Source: Candidatus Heimdallarchaeota archaeon (GTDB taxonomy: Archaea > Asgardarchaeota > Heimdallarchaeia > Heimdallarchaeales > Kariarchaeaceae). From it: a DNA stretch of 32,000 nt. Position numbers and translations under genes: made by a program. Each line of letters begins with the position of its first letter. Position 1 is the stretch's first letter. Under the pieces are notes generated by a model that was not told the origin of the DNA, ran no database searches, and saw only the letters and a list, made by a program, of their open reading frames with translations. The stretch lies in contig JASBSB010000006.1 in NCBI GenBank assembly GCA_030149205.1, positions 30,001 to 62,000 of the forward strand, read 5' to 3'. Below, piece after piece: positions 10,003 to 17,386 of this stretch.

Positions 10003-10962
10003 ATGAAAAGAATAACTATCGTATTATTAATTACACTTGCTGTAATGTTGATTTCTCCATTTGGAACGGTTCAGGCTGCTGAACTTGCACCAATCAAATA
10101 TTCAGCAACTAAAGTGTCAACCCCAATGAAAATTGATGGTAATCCAGCTGACTGGTCAAACATTCCAGTTGCCAAGATAAACCTCACATCACCTCTGGGA
10201 TTAGATAACTTGGTATATCATGCTCAGGTTCAGGTTGCATATGACACCAATAACGCTTACTTTTTAGTACAGGTGACAGATGAATACAGAATGTATGCTC
10301 CTATCCCCTCTGGTACACCTTTCACTGATTTTCAGAATCATAATACATCAGCAATAGGCTTAGCTTTTCCAATTAATGCTACAGTCGGGATGCATATGGG
10401 TGCACCAAGTGACAAACAAGCTGACCTAACTAAATCAACAGGTACTGTTGATATTGCTTTCTGGCAATTACAGACAAAACATGGTGTTCAAGCTGGAGGA
10501 ATAAACTCCTCTTATTATCACTCTGGTTCAGGTTCTGGGTTTGGTGGTCTAGATAATATGTGGGCGAACAATCCATACGTAAAGAATGTTGATAACAACA
10601 GTAAATCAGGTAACATGTGGCTTGGTGCATGGAGTTTTTCATCAGGAAACTATGTCAACGGTTCTAAAGGAAACTGGATTTTTGAATACAAGAGACCCTT
10701 GGTTACAAATAACACATTAGATGCTCAATGGAAAGTTGGGGGTATGACCTCTTTAGCACTAGCTTACTGGGATCCTGATGTAGACCCAAGTGGTTGGAAT
10801 GACCCAACTCATCACACAAGTAACCAGATGGTTGATATCTATTTTGGCCCCTTACCCACAACAAAGAGTGGAACCCCTGGGTTTGAGATTCTCTCTGGTT
10901 TATTTGCTGTATTGTTGATGGCTCCTGTCATCAGAAAGCTCTACCTTAACAAAAAACTTTAA
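10003..10962 (+). CDS. Secreted DOMON-fold (ethylbenzene-dehydrogenase-gamma/EB_dh-like) putative haem-binding protein with a PGF-CTERM-like anchor
   Basis: N-terminal signal peptide; IDGNPADW, AYD--NAYFLV, GMHMG, VDIAFW, GNWIFEYKRPL, LAYWD and THHTS motifs; C-terminal TPGF + hydrophobic helix + basic tail. Confidence 0.7.
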   Translation: MKRITIVLLITLAVMLISPFGTVQAAELAPIKYSATKVSTPMKIDGNPADWSNIPVAKINLTSPLGLDNLVYHAQVQVAYDTNNAYFLVQVTDEYRMYAPIPSGTPFTDFQNHNTSAIGLAFPINATVGMHMGAPSDKQADLTKSTGTVDIAFWQLQTKHGVQAGGINSSYYHSGSGSGFGGLDNMWANNPYVKNVDNNSKSGNMWLGAWSFSSGNYVNGSKGNWIFEYKRPLVTNNTLDAQWKVGGMTSLALAYWDPDVDPSGWNDPTHHTSNQMVDIYFGPLPTTKSGTPGFEILSGLFAVLLMAPVIRKLYLNKKL

Positions 10963-10989: not shown

Positions 10990-12582
10990 TTGAAGAATAA
11001 TTTACTTGTATTTATATTAACGATTTTTCTAGTTTTTTCAACTAATATTCAAATTTCAACGATTTCTTCTGAGGTCAATAATCAAAACCTTAACGTTCAA
11101 CTTTATCCAAAAAACACTTCTACAAGTGTTATTCTTGGGCTTAAACAAATAAACTCAGTTTTGAACAATTCAGTGATTTTTAATGGAGATTCATTGATTG
11201 GTTGGAAATATCGAGTGAATTCATCTTTAGATATAGCGAATACCATATTTGAGGGTTATTTGTTGGGGAATGCTGGTATAGGAAATTTCCTTCTAAATGC
11301 AGCTAAGGACAACCGGAGTGGAGTTAACGGCTCAATACTTTTACAGGTAGTAAACCATTTTCAAATGAACAAAAAGGTCTCACCCGCAGGAAATTATTAC
11401 TGGGGTAAGAAAGCGACTCCATCTGAAGGATATATTGGTTATCGATATGGATCTGCAGGGATACTTGATTTTTTATCCAGTTATTATAAAACCTATCAAA
11501 ATCAATCTTTGATACCGTTAATAGAAAAGGCGGTTAAATGGTTCTTTGAAATCAGACGTGCGGATGGGAACATCCCCATAAGCCCAAACAGCTTTTACAC
11601 AAGTGGTTTAGAGTATGGAATGGCTGCACCAGTACTTTCACTTGTCAAGCTTACTAGTAGATTAAACAACAGAACATATTTGCAACTAGCAGAAGAAATT
11701 GCACAACCACTTATACAGCTTGGAACATGGAATAATGGTAGTTTTTCTATCGAATGGACACCTTTTGGATCTGGAACTGAGTTTGCAAACCTAATTTTGA
11801 CGGGATACGAAACAGGACAAGCAGGTTTGTTGAAGATGTTCACTGATCTATATTTATCAACAAAAAATTCCACATATCTACGCTATGTGAATGGGATTGC
11901 CAATTATTTGGTTACCCATGATTTAGGTGGTTACTGGGCCAATAACACTGTCGGATACGTTTCTCACGAGAGTAATAACAATGCTCTTACTGGACTGTTA
12001 TCTGGTTCAGCTGGGATTGCTTTACAATTGCTAAACTATTCACTCACTTTTAACAAACCTCTTGTTTTAAGCAATGTCGCAAGGGTAGAGAAATTCTTGA
12101 ATCTATTTTATTCCAATGGTACCATATCAATGAGTCCTTATTTCAGTGGTATCAGGTACAATGGATTAAGATTAGGGGTGTCTGGATATCTTCATTTCCT
12201 TATGAAGTTGTACGAATCCTTTGGAACGGAATCTTATCTGACAAAAATCGACGAGATTATTATGGACCAAATCCGTCAGATAAATACATACAAAGATTAT
12301 CCAATAAGGACCAACAGCCCAGCCAATGGATTTGCATATAATTTAGCAGATGGAATCACTGGGTTTGGAACCATATTACTTGACTATCTTCGTTTACAAA
12401 AAGGTTCACCCAATCCAGATTACCAAAAATATTTGAATTCTGTGAAAGTGAACACTAATTATTATCCCACATCAAAAAGCACATCTGGTAAGATCACCGT
12501 TATTTTTACATTTGTGCCCATCACTCTTGCAATTCTTGTACTGAATAAGAAAAAACTAACTTTCAGAAATAAAGCTTCTTAG
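10990..12582 (+). CDS. Secreted, membrane-anchored LanC-like (alpha/alpha barrel) protein without cysteines
   Basis: Seven LanC-like repeats (GYLLGNAG, GYRYGSAG, GLEYGMAA, GYETGQAG, GLLSGSAG, GLRLGVSG, NLADGITG); signal peptide; C-terminal TM helix + KKK; no Cys in 530 aa; TTG start. Confidence 0.7.
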   Translation: MKNNLLVFILTIFLVFSTNIQISTISSEVNNQNLNVQLYPKNTSTSVILGLKQINSVLNNSVIFNGDSLIGWKYRVNSSLDIANTIFEGYLLGNAGIGNFLLNAAKDNRSGVNGSILLQVVNHFQMNKKVSPAGNYYWGKKATPSEGYIGYRYGSAGILDFLSSYYKTYQNQSLIPLIEKAVKWFFEIRRADGNIPISPNSFYTSGLEYGMAAPVLSLVKLTSRLNNRTYLQLAEEIAQPLIQLGTWNNGSFSIEWTPFGSGTEFANLILTGYETGQAGLLKMFTDLYLSTKNSTYLRYVNGIANYLVTHDLGGYWANNTVGYVSHESNNNALTGLLSGSAGIALQLLNYSLTFNKPLVLSNVARVEKFLNLFYSNGTISMSPYFSGIRYNGLRLGVSGYLHFLMKLYESFGTESYLTKIDEIIMDQIRQINTYKDYPIRTNSPANGFAYNLADGITGFGTILLDYLRLQKGSPNPDYQKYLNSVKVNTNYYPTSKSTSGKITVIFTFVPITLAILVLNKKKLTFRNKAS

Positions 12583-12957
12583 ACTAATTGCATGTCTACA
12601 AATCCCCCTCAGACATTTCTCGTTTTTACAAACCCCATATTTCAGACCCCATATTCTGATCTGTTCTAAAATTGGGATAAGTTCCTCACCCTTAGAATTC
12701 AACTTATATCTTTTCTTTCTAGGTTTTTCAGTGTTGTCAATTGTGTCTATGACACCAAGTTCTGTTAGGTGTGTCAACCTTTTGCTTAACACACGGGTGT
12801 TAATCTCAGGTAGAAAAGATTGAAGTTCGGTATAACTAAGGGAATTTTCAGGGTTAATTCTAGCGTTAATAAGCTCAATGATTAATTGCAAATTCCATTT
12901 TTCTCCAAAAACCGCTTCAACAAACCATAGCACACAATCGTCTCGGATGTTTAACAT
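12556..12957 (-). CDS. HxlR / MarR-DUF24 winged-helix transcriptional regulator
   Basis: C-x8-FGEKWNLQLI, SYTELQSFLPEINTRVLSKRL--L-E-G, RYKLNSKGEEL-PIL--I--WG; Cys8 plus a C-terminal CKNEKCLRGICRH. Confidence 0.92.
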   Translation of the reverse strand: MLNIRDDCVLWFVEAVFGEKWNLQLIIELINARINPENSLSYTELQSFLPEINTRVLSKRLTHLTELGVIDTIDNTEKPRKKRYKLNSKGEELIPILEQIRIWGLKYGVCKNEKCLRGICRHAISLRSFISES

Positions 12958-13005
12958 TATAGCATAGAAGTATTGGGATTTTATTAATATTTTAGAAAAT
13001 TCCCG

Positions 13006-13028
13006 ATTAGCTGTACATAATACAGCAA
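13006..13028. promoter_or_regulatory. Putative operator box 1, ATTAGCTGTACATAATACAGCAA (core palindrome GCTGTA-N5-TACAGC at 13010-13026)
   Basis: Perfect 6-bp inverted repeat; 22/23 nt identical to box 2; about 50 nt upstream of the HxlR start and adjacent to TTTATATT. Confidence 0.75.
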
Positions 13029-13160
13029 TTTATATTCAAATTGCTAATTTCTAAACATTCTCTGAATCTATCCTGTTTTTCATGCTATTTTATCAAATAA
13101 GCATGTATACTGTATTTTTTTGACAAGATTTTCTTGAAAACACAAAACAATGCAATAAAC

Positions 13161-13168
13161 TTTATATT
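13161..13168 (+). promoter_or_regulatory. Putative TATA box of nirK (TTTATATT), preceded by a purine-rich BRE-like stretch
   Basis: Sequence match and position just upstream of operator box 2 and the nirK start. Confidence 0.5.
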
Positions 13169-13171
13169 GTA

Positions 13172-13194
13172 ATTAGCTGTACAAAATACAGCAA
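13172..13194. promoter_or_regulatory. Putative operator box 2, ATTAGCTGTACAAAATACAGCAA (core at 13176-13192)
   Basis: Perfect GCTGTA-N5-TACAGC palindrome directly downstream of the TATA-like box; a degenerate third copy GCTGTA-TAAAG-TAAAGT follows at 13202-13218. Confidence 0.75.
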
Positions 13195-13230
13195 AAAAGT
13201 TGCTGTATAAAGTAAAGTTAAGTGATTACT

Positions 13231-14595
13231 ATGTCTATGGAATTGACAAATCAAAAACTATTTGGAATCATCATCGGAGTTGGATTACTCTCCGGGATGC
13301 TTGTAGCGGGAGTTGTTCTGGCCACCATACCTCAACAATCTACTCCCACACCTGGAAAGGTAACTTTTACATTAGTTGCAAAACTTTCTGGATTTGAAGG
13401 AGTTGGTGGAACCATTGATGGAAAGGTAAACCCTGACCTGAAAGTCTCACCCAACGACAATGTGACTATCATCCTTAAGGCAGGGGAACCTGTGCCTCAT
13501 GATTGGACATTAGATTCGGTTGGGAAATCTGAAACCGTCTCTACTGAGTCCTCTTTAGGGAAGTCTGAAGTTAAATTTAATTTCTTAGCAGGAAAAGAGC
13601 GAGTAGAAACCTATTATTGTTCAATTCCGGGCCATTTTGTGACCATGAATGGAAAGTTCATTGTAGGTACACCAAACCAGGTCCAACCGAAAGCTGCTTC
13701 ACATCTTTCAAACAGTGTGATCAAGTCACCAACAGATATTCCTGCACCTGTAGGAAATAGGTCTGCAAAAAATGTAGAATTTACTTTGGTCACTAAAGAG
13801 GTTATAGCTAAGATTGATGATGGGACAAGTTTCACCTTTTGGACTTTTAATGGAACTGTTCCAGGACCTTTAATCAGAGTTAGAATAGGTGATAATGTTA
13901 CATTACATCTAAAGAATGAATTGAATTCCACAATGGTTCACAGCATTGACTCACATGCGATAAATCTTCCAGGAGGAGGAGCAGCCTACACCCAGGTTAA
14001 ACCAGGAGAGACAAAATCATTCACATTCACTCCACAGTGGGAAGGTGTTTTTGTGTATCATTGTGCAAGTCCGCATATCCCTACACACATTTCAAAAGGT
14101 ATGTTCGGGGCATTATCAGTTGAACCTGCTGCTGGATTACCTACAGTAGCAAAAGAGTTCTATGTTGGACAGAATGAGGTTTACACACAGTTTCCGAAGG
14201 GCACACAGGGTCATCAAGAGTTCAGTGATGCAAAACAACTTACTGAGACTCCAGATTATGTTCTATTTAACGGACAAGTAAATGCTCTGACAAAGCCTGG
14301 GTTTACACTCAATGCAACAGTAAATACAACTGTAAGGATATTCTTTGCTGTTGGGGGACCAAATGTTGCTAGCAACTTTCACATGATAGGTGGAGTGTGG
14401 GACAGAGTGTACTATGAAACAGACTGGACCACTCCAAACATGATTAATGCGGAAACTATAGTTGTTCCACCGGGTTCTGCATTAGCACTAGAGATGGACA
14501 TAACTCGTCTTGGAAAGTTTATCTTGGTGGATCATGCATTAACTAGAACATTTGACAAGGGTTCACTTGGATTTTTATATTCAAACTTACCCTGA
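13231..14595 (+). CDS. nirK: Copper-containing nitrite reductase with an N-terminal TM anchor and an extra N-terminal cupredoxin domain
   Basis: WTFNGTVPGP, HSIDSHA (T1 His, catalytic Asp, T2 His), YHCAS...HISKGM (T2 His; T1 Cys/His/Met), GGPNVASNFHMIGG (catalytic His), LVDH (T2 His); extra domain PHDW...YYCSIPGHFVTM. The start could be GTG 13222, ATG 13231 or ATG 13237. Confidence 0.93.
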   Translation: MSMELTNQKLFGIIIGVGLLSGMLVAGVVLATIPQQSTPTPGKVTFTLVAKLSGFEGVGGTIDGKVNPDLKVSPNDNVTIILKAGEPVPHDWTLDSVGKSETVSTESSLGKSEVKFNFLAGKERVETYYCSIPGHFVTMNGKFIVGTPNQVQPKAASHLSNSVIKSPTDIPAPVGNRSAKNVEFTLVTKEVIAKIDDGTSFTFWTFNGTVPGPLIRVRIGDNVTLHLKNELNSTMVHSIDSHAINLPGGGAAYTQVKPGETKSFTFTPQWEGVFVYHCASPHIPTHISKGMFGALSVEPAAGLPTVAKEFYVGQNEVYTQFPKGTQGHQEFSDAKQLTETPDYVLFNGQVNALTKPGFTLNATVNTTVRIFFAVGGPNVASNFHMIGGVWDRVYYETDWTTPNMINAETIVVPPGSALALEMDITRLGKFILVDHALTRTFDKGSLGFLYSNLP

Positions 14596-14846: not shown

Positions 14847-16001
14847 ATGAGCAAAAGAGTTGCTGTCATTGCTGCTGGACAGAGCAAATTTGGAACATTA
14901 GGGAAGAGTATGAAGGAGTTGTTTATCGATGCCCTTAAAGATTGTGAGCTAAACACAAAAGAGCTCCTTACAAAGACTGAGGAAGTATACATTGGGAATT
15001 TAGGGGTTGGTGGATCTCAGCTTGGAAACCCTGCAGCTCTTCTTATTGAACATGGACTAAGAACAGGAATTAGTGCCCAACGTGTTGAAAACGCATGTGC
15101 ATCTAGTGGATTTGCCTTTAGAGATGCATACAGAGCCATCAGATCAGGTGCCAAAGTTTCAATCGCAGGGGGTGTTGAAGTTATGAATGATCTCTCACCA
15201 CTTCATCAAAAATACTGGTTAGGGGTTTCAGGTGACACTGAATGGGAAAGGTTAGCGGGAGCAACTTTTGCAGGAATATATGCTTTAATGGCAAAACGTC
15301 ATATGTATGAGTATGGCACTACAAAAGAAATGCTTGCCTCAATCGCAGTAAAAAACCATAGGAATGCTATAAACAATCCAAAAGCACAATTTCACAAAGA
15401 AATTAGTTTGGAGATGGCATTGAATTCTCCCCTTGTCGCAGATCCATTGGGGTTGTTTGACTGCTGTCCAACTTCAGACGGGGCTTCTGTTGTATTCCTG
15501 GCATCTGAAGAAGTTGCAAGAAAATACACTGATGAGCCTATTTGGGTCACTGGGAGTGGTGCTGCAACAGATTTTCTTGCTCTTCATGATCGACCATTAA
15601 TATCTGAAATAAAAGCAACTCAGCTAGCAATGAAACAGGCAATAAATCAAGCTGAAATAAAACATTCTGAAATTGACTTTGCCGAAGTACATGATTGCTT
15701 CACCATAGCAGAACTCTTAGCTATGGAAGATTTAGGGTTTTATGACAAAGGAGAGGCAGGTGATGCAATATTAAGAAATGATACCGGAATTGATGGTACA
15801 TTACCAATAAACGTTTCAGGTGGTCTTAAAGCCAAAGGACATCCCTTAGGGGCCACAGGAACCGGACAAATAGTTGAAATTTTTAACCAGTTAACAGAAA
15901 ACGCAGGAAAAAGACAGTTAAAAAACGTTCAAACAGGCCTTGCACATAATGTTGGTGGGTCTGGTGCAACATGTACTGTTCACATCTTAAGGAGGGAATA
16001 A
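14847..16001 (+). CDS. Archaeal-type acetyl-CoA acetyltransferase (thiolase, HDCF type)
   Basis: VENACASSG (catalytic Cys), DCCPTSDGA, EVHDCFTIAE, NVSGGLKAKGHPLGATG, GLAHNVGG. Confidence 0.95.
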   Translation: MSKRVAVIAAGQSKFGTLGKSMKELFIDALKDCELNTKELLTKTEEVYIGNLGVGGSQLGNPAALLIEHGLRTGISAQRVENACASSGFAFRDAYRAIRSGAKVSIAGGVEVMNDLSPLHQKYWLGVSGDTEWERLAGATFAGIYALMAKRHMYEYGTTKEMLASIAVKNHRNAINNPKAQFHKEISLEMALNSPLVADPLGLFDCCPTSDGASVVFLASEEVARKYTDEPIWVTGSGAATDFLALHDRPLISEIKATQLAMKQAINQAEIKHSEIDFAEVHDCFTIAELLAMEDLGFYDKGEAGDAILRNDTGIDGTLPINVSGGLKAKGHPLGATGTGQIVEIFNQLTENAGKRQLKNVQTGLAHNVGGSGATCTVHILRRE

Positions 16002-16003
16002 AA

Positions 16004-17386
16004 TTGGGATTAATTACACACATCTTTTCAAACTTGCCAAGGTTAAAGTTAAAATACACAGGAGGTTCAACACAATTAGAGAGATTTTATCACGCTTCCT
16101 ATAAGTTTGGGGTTGATGAGACGCCCACAACATTAGGTGTCAACTGCATGATAAATTTTCTAGATTCCATAAATGAACATAAATCCCTAGAGTTAAAATC
16201 CATTTTTATCTCATATCCTGAGGACTTTGAACTAGACACTTTTCTTGAAGCTACAGGAATAGATTCAGATAAGGTTTTAATTGTTAATGGACGAGTTAAT
16301 TTAGAAATTTTATGGGAGATTGGAAAAACACTGGATACCTGTTTCATCAACATAACTGATCCTAAATCTTCGAATAATGAAATCAGGGGAGTTCTAACAC
16401 CCTCTGCCATTCTTTTTGCAAATATTTCGAGTTTTAATCCGCTTTTAGTTTTAGATAATTTCAACAGATTTAACAACCTAAGAATCCCCACCTTGTCGCG
16501 AATTAATTCGTTATCAGTAGAAAAAAGAGTTCTAGAATCTTTGACCCCAATCGTTGATAAGGAAAAATTGATATTGACTAATACTCTAAATGGAAAAAAA
16601 TTATCTAAACTCAAGAACTTTATTTGCTCAAATCAATGGTTCGGTTTTTCCGGAGATGCAACACTCTTGCTTAACTTGCAAATGTTAGTTTTTGGACATG
16701 ACTCCTCTTCAGATATTGAAAAATCATTTATACTCTTTAATGGAAATGAGCTAGGTTCTGTGACAGTATCTGGAAAAATCATAGTCAAGAATAATAGTTC
16801 GCTCTCAGTTGAAAAATTTTTCAAAACAGAAGAAAAATATACTAACTTAGAATTAAAAGTAGAAGAAAAAAAACAATGTTACCTCTCAAAAGGTGTTCAA
16901 AACATATCCATTGAAAAGTTTTTGAAATTACAAAATACTCATAATCCATCTGAAAGTATTGCTCAAGGTGCCTTTATTTCAAACGCACAGTATTTAAAGG
17001 AGAAAAACTCTCGCTATCGGTTGGTTTCAAACAGATGTACGGAGTGTGAAGAGATTATCTTCCCCCCTAGATTATACTGTAGATATTGTTATAGTTTGAC
17101 AAAGAAGGATCTTCCACTTCCCAAGACTGGAAAAATCTACTCATTAACAACCATAATGAAAGGAGCCGCTCCAAGTGAGTTTGTTGCTTATCAGGAGCTC
17201 GATAGTATATATTCTGTAGGTATCATAGAGCTCCTTCCAAATGTTCGAATTATCTCTCAGATTACTGACTGGGAATCAAATGAACTTGACATTAATGATG
17301 AGGTGCATATGGTGTTCAGACTGATTTATTGCCAAGATGGGTTGAGAAGATACGGATTTAAATTTACAAAATTAAAAATTTTTTAA
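16004..17386 (+). CDS. Degenerate HMG-CoA-synthase-like N-terminal region fused to a DUF35 Zn-ribbon/OB-fold domain
   Basis: N-terminal LPRLKL and DETPTTLG resemble the HMGCS/KAS-III start; C-terminal CTECEEIIFPPRLYCRYC, GKIYSLTTI, VGIIEL and VHMVFR are DUF35. GGAGG at 15991-15995 supports a TTG start at 16004. Confidence 0.8.
   Translation: MGLITHIFSNLPRLKLKYTGGSTQLERFYHASYKFGVDETPTTLGVNCMINFLDSINEHKSLELKSIFISYPEDFELDTFLEATGIDSDKVLIVNGRVNLEILWEIGKTLDTCFINITDPKSSNNEIRGVLTPSAILFANISSFNPLLVLDNFNRFNNLRIPTLSRINSLSVEKRVLESLTPIVDKEKLILTNTLNGKKLSKLKNFICSNQWFGFSGDATLLLNLQMLVFGHDSSSDIEKSFILFNGNELGSVTVSGKIIVKNNSSLSVEKFFKTEEKYTNLELKVEEKKQCYLSKGVQNISIEKFLKLQNTHNPSESIAQGAFISNAQYLKEKNSRYRLVSNRCTECEEIIFPPRLYCRYCYSLTKKDLPLPKTGKIYSLTTIMKGAAPSEFVAYQELDSIYSVGIIELLPNVRIISQITDWESNELDINDEVHMVFRLIYCQDGLRRYGFKFTKLKIF

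Follow-up and report, generated by a model that had tools for sequence, protein, structure and literature searches.

A candidate HxlR-family switch with palindromic operator boxes beside a copper nitrite reductase gene of a Heimdallarchaeal genome

We analysed a 32,000-nucleotide (nt) stretch of DNA, called the window below, from a Candidatus Heimdallarchaeota archaeon of the family Kariarchaeaceae (assembly GCA_030149205.1, contig JASBSB010000006.1, positions 30,001 to 62,000 of the forward strand). Our subject is the intergenic region between two divergently oriented genes, one encoding a cysteine-rich winged-helix regulator of the HxlR/DUF24 family and the other the copper nitrite reductase NirK. 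An earlier note, made by reading the letters alone, had described two 23-nt copies of a sequence with perfect palindromes in this region, together with a degenerate third copy and TATA-like elements adjacent to the two main copies. All of these features were found where the note had placed them, and their coordinates are collected in Table 1. Boxes 1 and 2 are identical at 22 of 23 nt and share a perfect GCTGTA-N5-TACAGC palindrome, while box 3 has a complete left half-site and a degenerate right arm and starts 26 nt after the start of the box 2 palindrome. The sequence TTTATATT is present at both TATA-like positions, and both copies lie between boxes 1 and 2. Seen in the direction of either gene, the order is therefore the same, namely TATA-like element, box, gene. 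It is because of this mirror arrangement with the nirK-side element that we assign a putative function to the element on the regulator side. A further, proximal TATA-like stretch is present approximately 25-40 nt before the ATG of the regulator gene. The note had started nirK at a GTG at position 13222; the ATG at 13231 is the likelier start, with a GTGAT Shine-Dalgarno-like element before it.

Table 1. Genes, candidate operator boxes and TATA-like elements of the locus, and candidate boxes at related nirK loci. G000 is the genome of the window, G002 a genome of the same genus and G005 one of another genus; L numbers are loci and P numbers are relatives of the regulator. aa, amino acids.
Feature	Position	Strand or side	Sequence	Remarks
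HxlR/DUF24-family winged-helix regulator, 133 aa	12556-12957	minus		assigned by Pfam, profile and fold
nirK, membrane-anchored copper nitrite reductase with N-terminal cupredoxin domain, 454 aa	13231-14595	plus		assigned by structure-profile and Pfam
Box 1, operator candidate	13006-13028	regulator side	ATTAGCTGTACATAATACAGCAA = ATTA-GCTGTA-CATAA-TACAGC-AA	
TATA-like element	13029-13036	minus	AATATAAA on that strand	abuts box 1, upstream as seen from the regulator gene
TATA-like element	13161-13168	plus	TTTATATT	3 nt upstream of box 2; candidate nirK promoter
Box 2, operator candidate	13172-13194	over expected nirK transcription start	ATTAGCTGTACAAAATACAGCAA = ATTA-GCTGTA-CAAAA-TACAGC-AA	
Box 3, degenerate copy	13202-13218		GCTGTATAAAGTAAAGT = GCTGTA-TAAAG-TAAAGT	2 mismatches
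L039 nirK box	just upstream of nirK		AAATTGCTTTA-CTTTT-GAAAGCAATTT	GCTTTA/GAAAGC arms
L039 second, weaker box	94 nt further up		GCTTTC-AAAAT-TAAAGT	
G002 nirK box			GCTATA-GAGAC-TATAGT	
G005 nirK box			GCTATA-AAATG-TATAGT	two N6 variants further up (read by eye)
G008 nirK box			ACTATG-CAAAA-TATAGT	
L043 nirK box			GCTATA-AGACC-TATAGT	
L046 nirK box			ACTATT-TATTC-TATAGT	

The repeat of the box is real, non-random and private to this locus. The window contains four matches to the palindrome at up to two mismatches versus 0.53 expected, and none of 100 shuffles reached four. According to the earlier note, a motif spread widely through the genome would have spoken against a local system. In the whole genome (3,308,062 bases, 35.5% G+C) there are only two exact GCTGTA-N5-TACAGC sites, both of them in this intergenic region, and the motif is thus not widespread. 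By our own calculation, base composition alone predicts approximately 0.1 exact matches. When the same arms were searched at other spacings from 0 to 12, each spacing gave 0 or 1 match in the genome. No compositional island was found around the locus. A near-identical strain from an independent vent metagenome (X2) has kept the regulator and box 2, which is as far as the contigs of that metagenome reach, box 1 lying beyond them. Its 186-nt contig differs from the window at five positions, two of them in the N5 spacer of box 2 and none listed in the half-sites or the TATA-like element.

By its sequence, the gene on the right side of the boxes is a genuine three-domain NirK. Compared with solved enzymes, it matched 6tfd with E 2.4e-108 and 2dv6 with E 6.1e-108 over residues 54-450. 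The alignment to both begins at residue 54 and takes in an extra N-terminal cupredoxin domain of the Hyphomicrobium type. The motifs HSIDSH, YHCASPHIPTHISKGM, FHMIGG and VDHAL, in line with two cupredoxin domains that carry type 1 and type 2 copper ligands and the catalytic Asp and His, agree with the solved enzyme, and Pfam reported Cu-oxidase_3 and Copper-bind. This NirK occurs in 4 of 400 Asgard genomes searched, all within the window's own family, and the nearest NirK proteins carry the labels Kariarchaeaceae, Hodarchaeales and Thorarchaeota. Earlier work has already remarked on NirK in Heimdall-group genomes (PMC11459464, PMC11958966). The NirK of G002 is 63-66% identical to that of the window, and the one from the other genus, G005, is no more distant (64-66%). 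The nirK context in G002 also differs, with a peroxiredoxin gene upstream. This pattern may reflect an old paralogy of nirK or its transfer between members of the family.

The regulator matched the HxlR family (PF01638) with 55.7 bits against a cut-off of 20.8 bits over residues 17-107. HxlR was its sole Pfam match at E values up to 0.01, with no match to the Rrf2 domain (PF02082). When the profile of its clade was compared with solved structures, YodB (5hs7) was the best match (9.3e-20), followed by YdzF, HxlR, YtcD, HypR (listed as YybR) and QsrR. The AF2 model of the protein has a mean predicted local distance difference test score (pLDDT) of 90.5 and shows the HxlR winged-helix fold. Foldseek gave a probability of 1.00 to 2fsw, 7kd3, HxlR 7bzg, HypR 4a5m, YodB 5hs7 and QsrR 4hqe, with target TM-scores of 0.75-0.85. 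Rrf2 structures were absent from the 17 profile hits and from the top 50 fold hits. No solved relative aligned with more than 111 of the 133 residues, and the last ~25 form an extra C-terminal extension that holds short helices at 113-116 and 121-132. The earlier note had named a Cys-rich HxlR/DUF24 protein with an N-terminal cysteine and an extra C-terminal sequence, and this description proved right: beside Cys8, there is a Cys/His tail that reads C110-KNEK-C115-LRGI-C120-R-H122.

Conservation singles out four of these residues. Cys8 is invariant in 20 aligned sequences and lies 13 residues before a conserved Trp, versus 14 residues in YodB. In the profile alignment, Cys101 and Cys108 of YodB fall on C110 and C115, and counterparts of YodB C6, C101 and C108 are all present. 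C8, C115, C120 and H122 are invariant in the 16 members of the clade and in the divergent branch formed by the L077 and L078 regulators; C110 is not invariant. We refer to this set as the Cys3-His signature. Among the best 150 relatives, 12 clusters have a C-x4-C-x-H tail and 28 clusters a C-x(2-8)-C-x2-C tail, and most of the N-terminal stretches listed for them contain an early Cys. The named members looked up from the C-x(2-8)-C-x2-C clusters were Methanofastidiosa archaea. A set of four conserved ligands in which His and Cys swap at the last position is seen more typically at metal or cluster sites than in simple disulfides. Our search for a paper on a four-ligand HxlR subgroup found none. 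This uncharacterised subgroup may bind a metal or an iron-sulfur (Fe-S) cluster.

A predicted dimer places the four residues at the subunit interface. The model of the homodimer reached an ipSAE of 0.75, while the best control reached 0.00. In calibration, 20 of 30 proteins solved as one-chain pairs attained this mark, as did 1 of 23 solved single chains; these counts are only roughly valid here, as the model was built with our own alignment and two zinc ions. Solved dimers of the HxlR family exist, and the result may thus partly reflect memory of them. Contacts agreed between runs to at least 97%, with pLDDT of at least 83. The model is consistent with a homodimer formed through the N- and C-terminal helices, as in the HxlR family. 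Its interface comprises residues 6-14 and 103-112, and from the tail only residues 115, 120 and 122. The invariant four-residue set sits at the modelled interface, and its topology would be that of an Rrf2-type Fe-S site.

If the regulator and nirK belong together, the pairing should be found beyond the window, as the earlier note had proposed to check. At 5 of 13 Asgard nirK loci, a gene for an HxlR protein with the Cys3-His signature lies next to nirK, and three arrangements occur. The two genes are divergent in the window and at P0003 (45% identical to the window protein), in tandem with the regulator P0002 upstream of nirK in L039 (47%), and convergent in L077 and L078, where the regulator gene (26-27%) lies immediately downstream of nirK. 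These nirK-flanking regulators are only 26-47% identical to the window protein, yet C8, C115, C120 and H122 are invariant. P0002 and P0003, both beside a NirK gene, are also the closest members of the regulator's small clade in an exhaustive HMMER search. Since the genome carries approximately 7 HxlR genes, we estimate that one would neighbour nirK by chance in well below 1% of loci. No other regulator family recurs beside nirK in the 13 loci.

Our first view of the pairing had been different. The first 40 relatives searched gave regulator homologues of 38-45% identity, of which none adjoin nirK and none have this motif, and the trio of regulator, box and nirK therefore seemed unconserved; the nearest metagenomic homologues, which do lie beside nirK, overturned this view. 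A word-based protein search with the regulator returned the query alone, and a scan of genome contigs with the regulator as a single protein found nothing. The alignment of 16 sequences was too diverse for a locus scan, for which we used one of four sequences. That scan gave one Heimdallarchaeota locus and two metagenome loci, with nirK near none of them; the three share a divergent gene, which was DUF123 in the one tested, and membrane genes that we call nuo-like solely on the basis of their translations. The nearest homologue in a named genome belongs to a Candidatus Heimdallarchaeota metagenome-assembled genome, and 10 of the 11 other genomes of the family contain a match to the regulator at E 1e-5 or better. 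A single clade of nirK-linked regulators was not resolved in the tree, which joined the window protein with P0002 at only 86/63 support and left P0003 unplaced. The L039 contig also carries ESCRT genes, which, with the Heimdallarchaeota homologue and the labels of the nearest NirK proteins, marks the host as an Asgard archaeon and not an ammonia oxidiser.

We then compared the DNA upstream of nirK between loci. The core CTNT-N7-ANAG with a symmetric central base is present in 7 of 8 nirK upstream regions tested, with 9 sites in total, and L043 and L046 were added after the box pattern had been fixed. In 2000 dinucleotide shuffles the mean total was 0.16 and the maximum 2 of 8 regions, and the genome background was 0.023 per 220 nt. 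The earlier note had asked whether the whole trio is conserved in relatives: related palindromes stand at these 7 of 8 loci, and exact GCTGTA-N5-TACAGC is absent from the loci of all relatives. We found no recognisable box before nirK in L047, L077, L078 and L079, and L080 has a 1-mismatch site only. Several boxes before nirK also occur in L039 and L034, and the layout with a TATA-like element beside the box is repeated at nirK of G008 and at a DoxX gene of G005.

The manner in which the boxes vary is informative. The arms change symmetrically, from GCTGTA/TACAGC in the window to GCTTTA/GAAAGC in L039 and [GA]CTATA/TATAGT elsewhere; between the window and L039, position 4 of the left arm changes from G to T and the mirror position from C to A. 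The flanking DNA cannot be aligned across the nirK loci while the sequence of the arms is conserved, and this indicates sequence-specific recognition. Loci without an adjacent regulator share the CTATA type, and private variants (GCTGTA and GCTTTA) occur at the two loci where a regulator is adjacent and the box is readable. The recognition helices at these private-box loci are INTRVLSKRL and ISSRTLTRRL, versus the common ISPRMLSMRL. We treat this as a lead from two cases, which would fit dedicated paralogues with co-diverged operators.

Boxes of the CTATA type extend beyond nirK. The window's own genome has ACTATA-TTTGC-TATAGT at G000:C2:16516-16532 (L049:2017-2033), 13.5 kb before the window starts; shortly downstream of this box lie a DoxX/DoxD-like gene and then a thioredoxin-like gene. 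It also has GCTATA-CTTAA-TATAGT at G000:C8:478409-478425 (L050), just upstream of a TusA-DsrE-DsrE operon. The CTATA-type pattern has 10 sites in G005 versus 2 for a reversed-pattern control, and the G005 sites examined precede two DoxX genes, a hemerythrin gene, a gene for an Rce1-like protease and nirK. The DoxX boxes of two genera are near-identical over 21 nt, with the extended form ATACTATA-N5-TATAGTTA. What stands behind these boxes looks like a redox or sulfur-stress regulon, and the nirK system looks like a branch of it, not an isolated invention. In Bacillus, DUF24 regulators classically target DoxX-like genes, as with catD under CatR and YodB, and this indirectly favours an HxlR protein as the binder of the boxes.

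Taken together, we hold it to be somewhat more probable than the contrary that the regulator is a local HxlR repressor of nirK, and probably of its own gene, which binds the boxes and is set by redox state or a metal. Because gene pairing and related sites recur in relatives, this is probably a dedicated, not yet described nitrite-reduction switch. DNA binding, repression and autoregulation, as well as the nature of the centre and of its signal, are parts that we infer. In outline, a dimer of the 133-aa protein would bind one 17-bp palindrome GCTGTA-N5-TACAGC, whose half-site centres are 11 bp apart, or approximately one helical turn. Box 2, together with the weak box 3, would position the protein right after the nirK TATA-like element and over the expected transcription start, and box 1 would do so in mirror position after the TATA-like element facing the regulator gene. 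Bound there, the protein would block recruitment of RNA polymerase at both divergent promoters, and both nirK and the regulator gene would be repressed. Release would depend on a centre between the subunits, to which one subunit would contribute Cys8, where helix 1 begins, and its partner Cys115, Cys120 and His122. A YodB-like thiol-disulfide switch is one form that this centre could take, a bound metal or an Fe-S cluster another, and the start sites would stay occluded until the centre is oxidised, nitrosylated or loses its metal. A plausible signal would be an oxidant or a nitrosative species, for example the nitric oxide (NO) made by NirK.

Several observations weigh against such a local repressor. 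Boxes precede nirK without an adjacent HxlR gene in G002, G005, G008, L043 and L046, and the binder could be an unlinked factor, perhaps not an HxlR protein. No such box was found upstream of the other regulators of the clade, that of L039 included, and autoregulation is therefore not general. L077 and L078 have a regulator without a recognisable box, and L047 has neither. The distance between TATA-like element and box ranges from ~6 to 35 nt between loci, which leaves the geometry of repression clear only in the window and G008. The family does not dictate the sign of control either, as PDB entries name the B. subtilis HxlR protein a transcriptional activator. With regard to the counts, the generalised box pattern was partly shaped on the same loci in which it was later counted, and the genomes are related, meaning that the counts are not independent.

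These observations lead to other explanations of the same locus. One keeps the protein and its boxes and reverses the sign, such that a modified centre would activate nirK, with box 1 as an upstream activating site and box 2 holding the protein at the promoter. The naming of HxlR as an activator, with one PDB entry containing both formaldehyde and DNA, would fit positive control, and so would the variable distance from box to TATA-like element; were the proximal TATA-like stretch of the regulator gene the one in use, box 1 would also lie upstream of the regulator promoter. Box 2 of the window, however, would cover the start site at its 3-nt distance from the TATA-like element, a position from which an archaeal box usually blocks RNA polymerase. 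Moreover, the closest characterised relatives by sequence (YodB, QsrR and HypR) are mostly repressors, and we consider activation unlikely. We give the same low standing to an unlinked factor that would bind the palindromes and control nirK and the redox regulon across the family, leaving the adjacent HxlR protein with another target or an indirect role. The five nirK loci that have a box and lack an adjacent HxlR gene are what such a factor would produce, as are the CTATA-type boxes before several unrelated genes of G005 (10 sites versus 2 in the control) and the missing boxes of the other clade regulators. On the other hand, HxlR is the sole regulator family that recurs beside nirK (5 of 13 loci), and private box variants with an adjacent regulator versus the CTATA type without one fit a dedicated paralogue and its co-diverged operator. 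A further argument against it is that, in the window, TATA-like element and box stand in mirrored order before the regulator gene and nirK, and with a regulator match in nearly all other genomes of the family, a regulator of the clade may itself act in trans.

The palindromes could also act as RNA hairpins in the nirK 5' leader, affecting stability or translation, and not as DNA operators. The symmetric changes of the arms do resemble compensatory base pairs, G:U-compatible positions included, and in several loci the box lies between TATA-like element and Shine-Dalgarno element. In the window, the RNA of 13169-13240, with boxes 2 and 3, was predicted to fold at -17.7 kcal/mol (z = -3.4) with the Shine-Dalgarno-like region paired. 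Single stems are nevertheless weak, with -7.0 kcal/mol in the window and -2.6 to -4.6 kcal/mol in boxes of the CTATA type, and the arm sequence itself (C, T, T and A positions) is conserved beyond what pairing requires. The nearest TATA-like element in the window and G008 puts the transcription start inside or after the box, box 1 is 166 nt upstream and outside any such leader, and an Rfam scan gave no match beyond a chance-level miRNA model (E 0.48). We therefore regard hairpins as very improbable.

The proposed repressor resembles several known systems and differs from each. The YodB dimer spans two adjacent major grooves at its operator TACT-N7-AGTA, and an intersubunit Cys6-Cys101' disulfide serves as its switch (PMC8063818). 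The window protein shares with the thiol-based DUF24/HxlR repressors YodB, QsrR and HypR the Pfam family, the fold and a sensing-type Cys at the start of helix 1. As in YodB, there is a homodimer (here modelled), a palindromic operator with half-sites in adjacent major grooves (here a candidate) and a pairing of N-terminal with C-terminal Cys' positions at the subunit interface (here in the model). Unlike the YodB group, it has ~25 additional C-terminal residues with Cys120, His122 and a helix outside any solved HxlR structure, its host is an Asgard archaeon, and its target would be nitrite reductase and not a quinone or azo reductase. Also, the set that is invariant in the clade is C8, C115, C120 and H122 and not the disulfide pair of YodB. 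The QsrR operator is GTATA-N5-TATAC. With B. subtilis HxlR (7bzd, 7bzg) the window protein has in common the family and fold, an N-terminal Cys in helix 1 and its place as local regulator of an adjacent divergent operon, but HxlR has no Cys/His tail. HxlR senses formaldehyde via an intra-helical Cys-Lys cross-link and activates (PMC7835342).

Other comparisons concern the control of nitrite reductase and lie outside the HxlR family. NsrR, of the Rrf2 family, senses NO with a [4Fe-4S] cluster; it represses nirK in Nitrosomonas europaea and, in many bacteria, genes of NO stress. Its cluster is held by three C-terminal Cys of one subunit and an N-terminal residue of the partner. The window protein is likewise a small winged-helix protein, predicted to dimerise and local at nirK, and in the dimer model C115, C120 and H122 with C8' have the same topology. 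It belongs to HxlR and not to Rrf2, however, such that the likeness would be one of a possible working mode and not of membership, the Fe-S cluster being hypothetical here. The usual NO-responsive regulators of nirK and nirS in bacteria are NnrR, DNR and Nnr of the Crp-Fnr family, with Fnr-type boxes TTGAT-N4-ATCAA. They share with our proposal the dedicated control of nitrite reductase, answering a nitrogen oxide or oxygen signal, but have another fold and act as activators. No Crp-Fnr-type protein or Fnr-type box was found next to nirK in the Asgard loci examined. A far-reaching extension of the local repressor, which we regard as rather doubtful, is that the Cys3-His clade and the sister C-x(2-8)-C-x2-C group would hold an Fe-S cluster or another redox-active metal between the subunits. 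They would then be a convergent, HxlR-fold counterpart of NsrR that senses NO or oxygen and switches on nitrite reduction and a stress regulon of DoxX, TusA-DsrE and hemerythrin genes, while dedicated paralogues and their operators co-diverged next to nirK.

The earlier note knew of no described example of such a system, and we likewise found no published one in the papers searched: searches on HxlR with nirK, nitrite reductase, iron-sulfur or zinc gave nothing relevant. The HxlR family itself is known; new is an Asgard Cys3-His clade of it that is tied to nirK and comes with a well-defined candidate operator. If our reading is correct, a regulator of a denitrification gene would be proposed here for the first time in this Asgard group, and an HxlR-family protein linked for the first time to nitrite reductase. 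What the locus offers is a unique pair that is short and lends itself to easy testing, with a tie to an enzyme of respiration or detoxification. How nirK is controlled could tell when nitrogen oxides are used by these organisms, a point relevant to the debate on the respiration of oxygen and nitrate in the Heimdall group. Should the redox-metal reading be true, there would be an NsrR-like switch in the closest prokaryotic relatives of eukaryotes.

Some observations on the surroundings of these genes may be added. Just upstream of the regulator, the window encodes an EB_dh/DOMON-like secreted protein (10003-10962) and a LanC-like protein (10990-12582). An EB_dh-domain gene in G008 (L051) has a perfect ACTATA-N5-TATAGT box 14 nt before its start, and no such box was found before the EB_dh gene of the window. 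At other Asgard nirK loci, a truncated-globin gene (Bac_globin, L080:3919-4308) lies convergent directly after nirK, and a weak Fur-like gene (L079:2013-2432, on a Thorarchaeota contig) follows nirK; these neighbours hint at NO or metal handling around Asgard nirK. On the far side of nirK in the window (14847-17386), a thiolase gene comes before a larger one that has a ChsH2 zinc-ribbon and OB domain (DUF35-like) at its end, an order similar to the acetoacetyl-CoA thiolase / HMG-CoA synthase scaffold arrangement of the archaeal mevalonate pathway. The genome also contains three genes of the heme-copper oxidase superfamily (COX1) at G000:C2:103797-105122, C8:413685-415052 and C2:435999-437357. 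Judging from these the host probably respires oxygen, and one or two of the three might be NO reductases.

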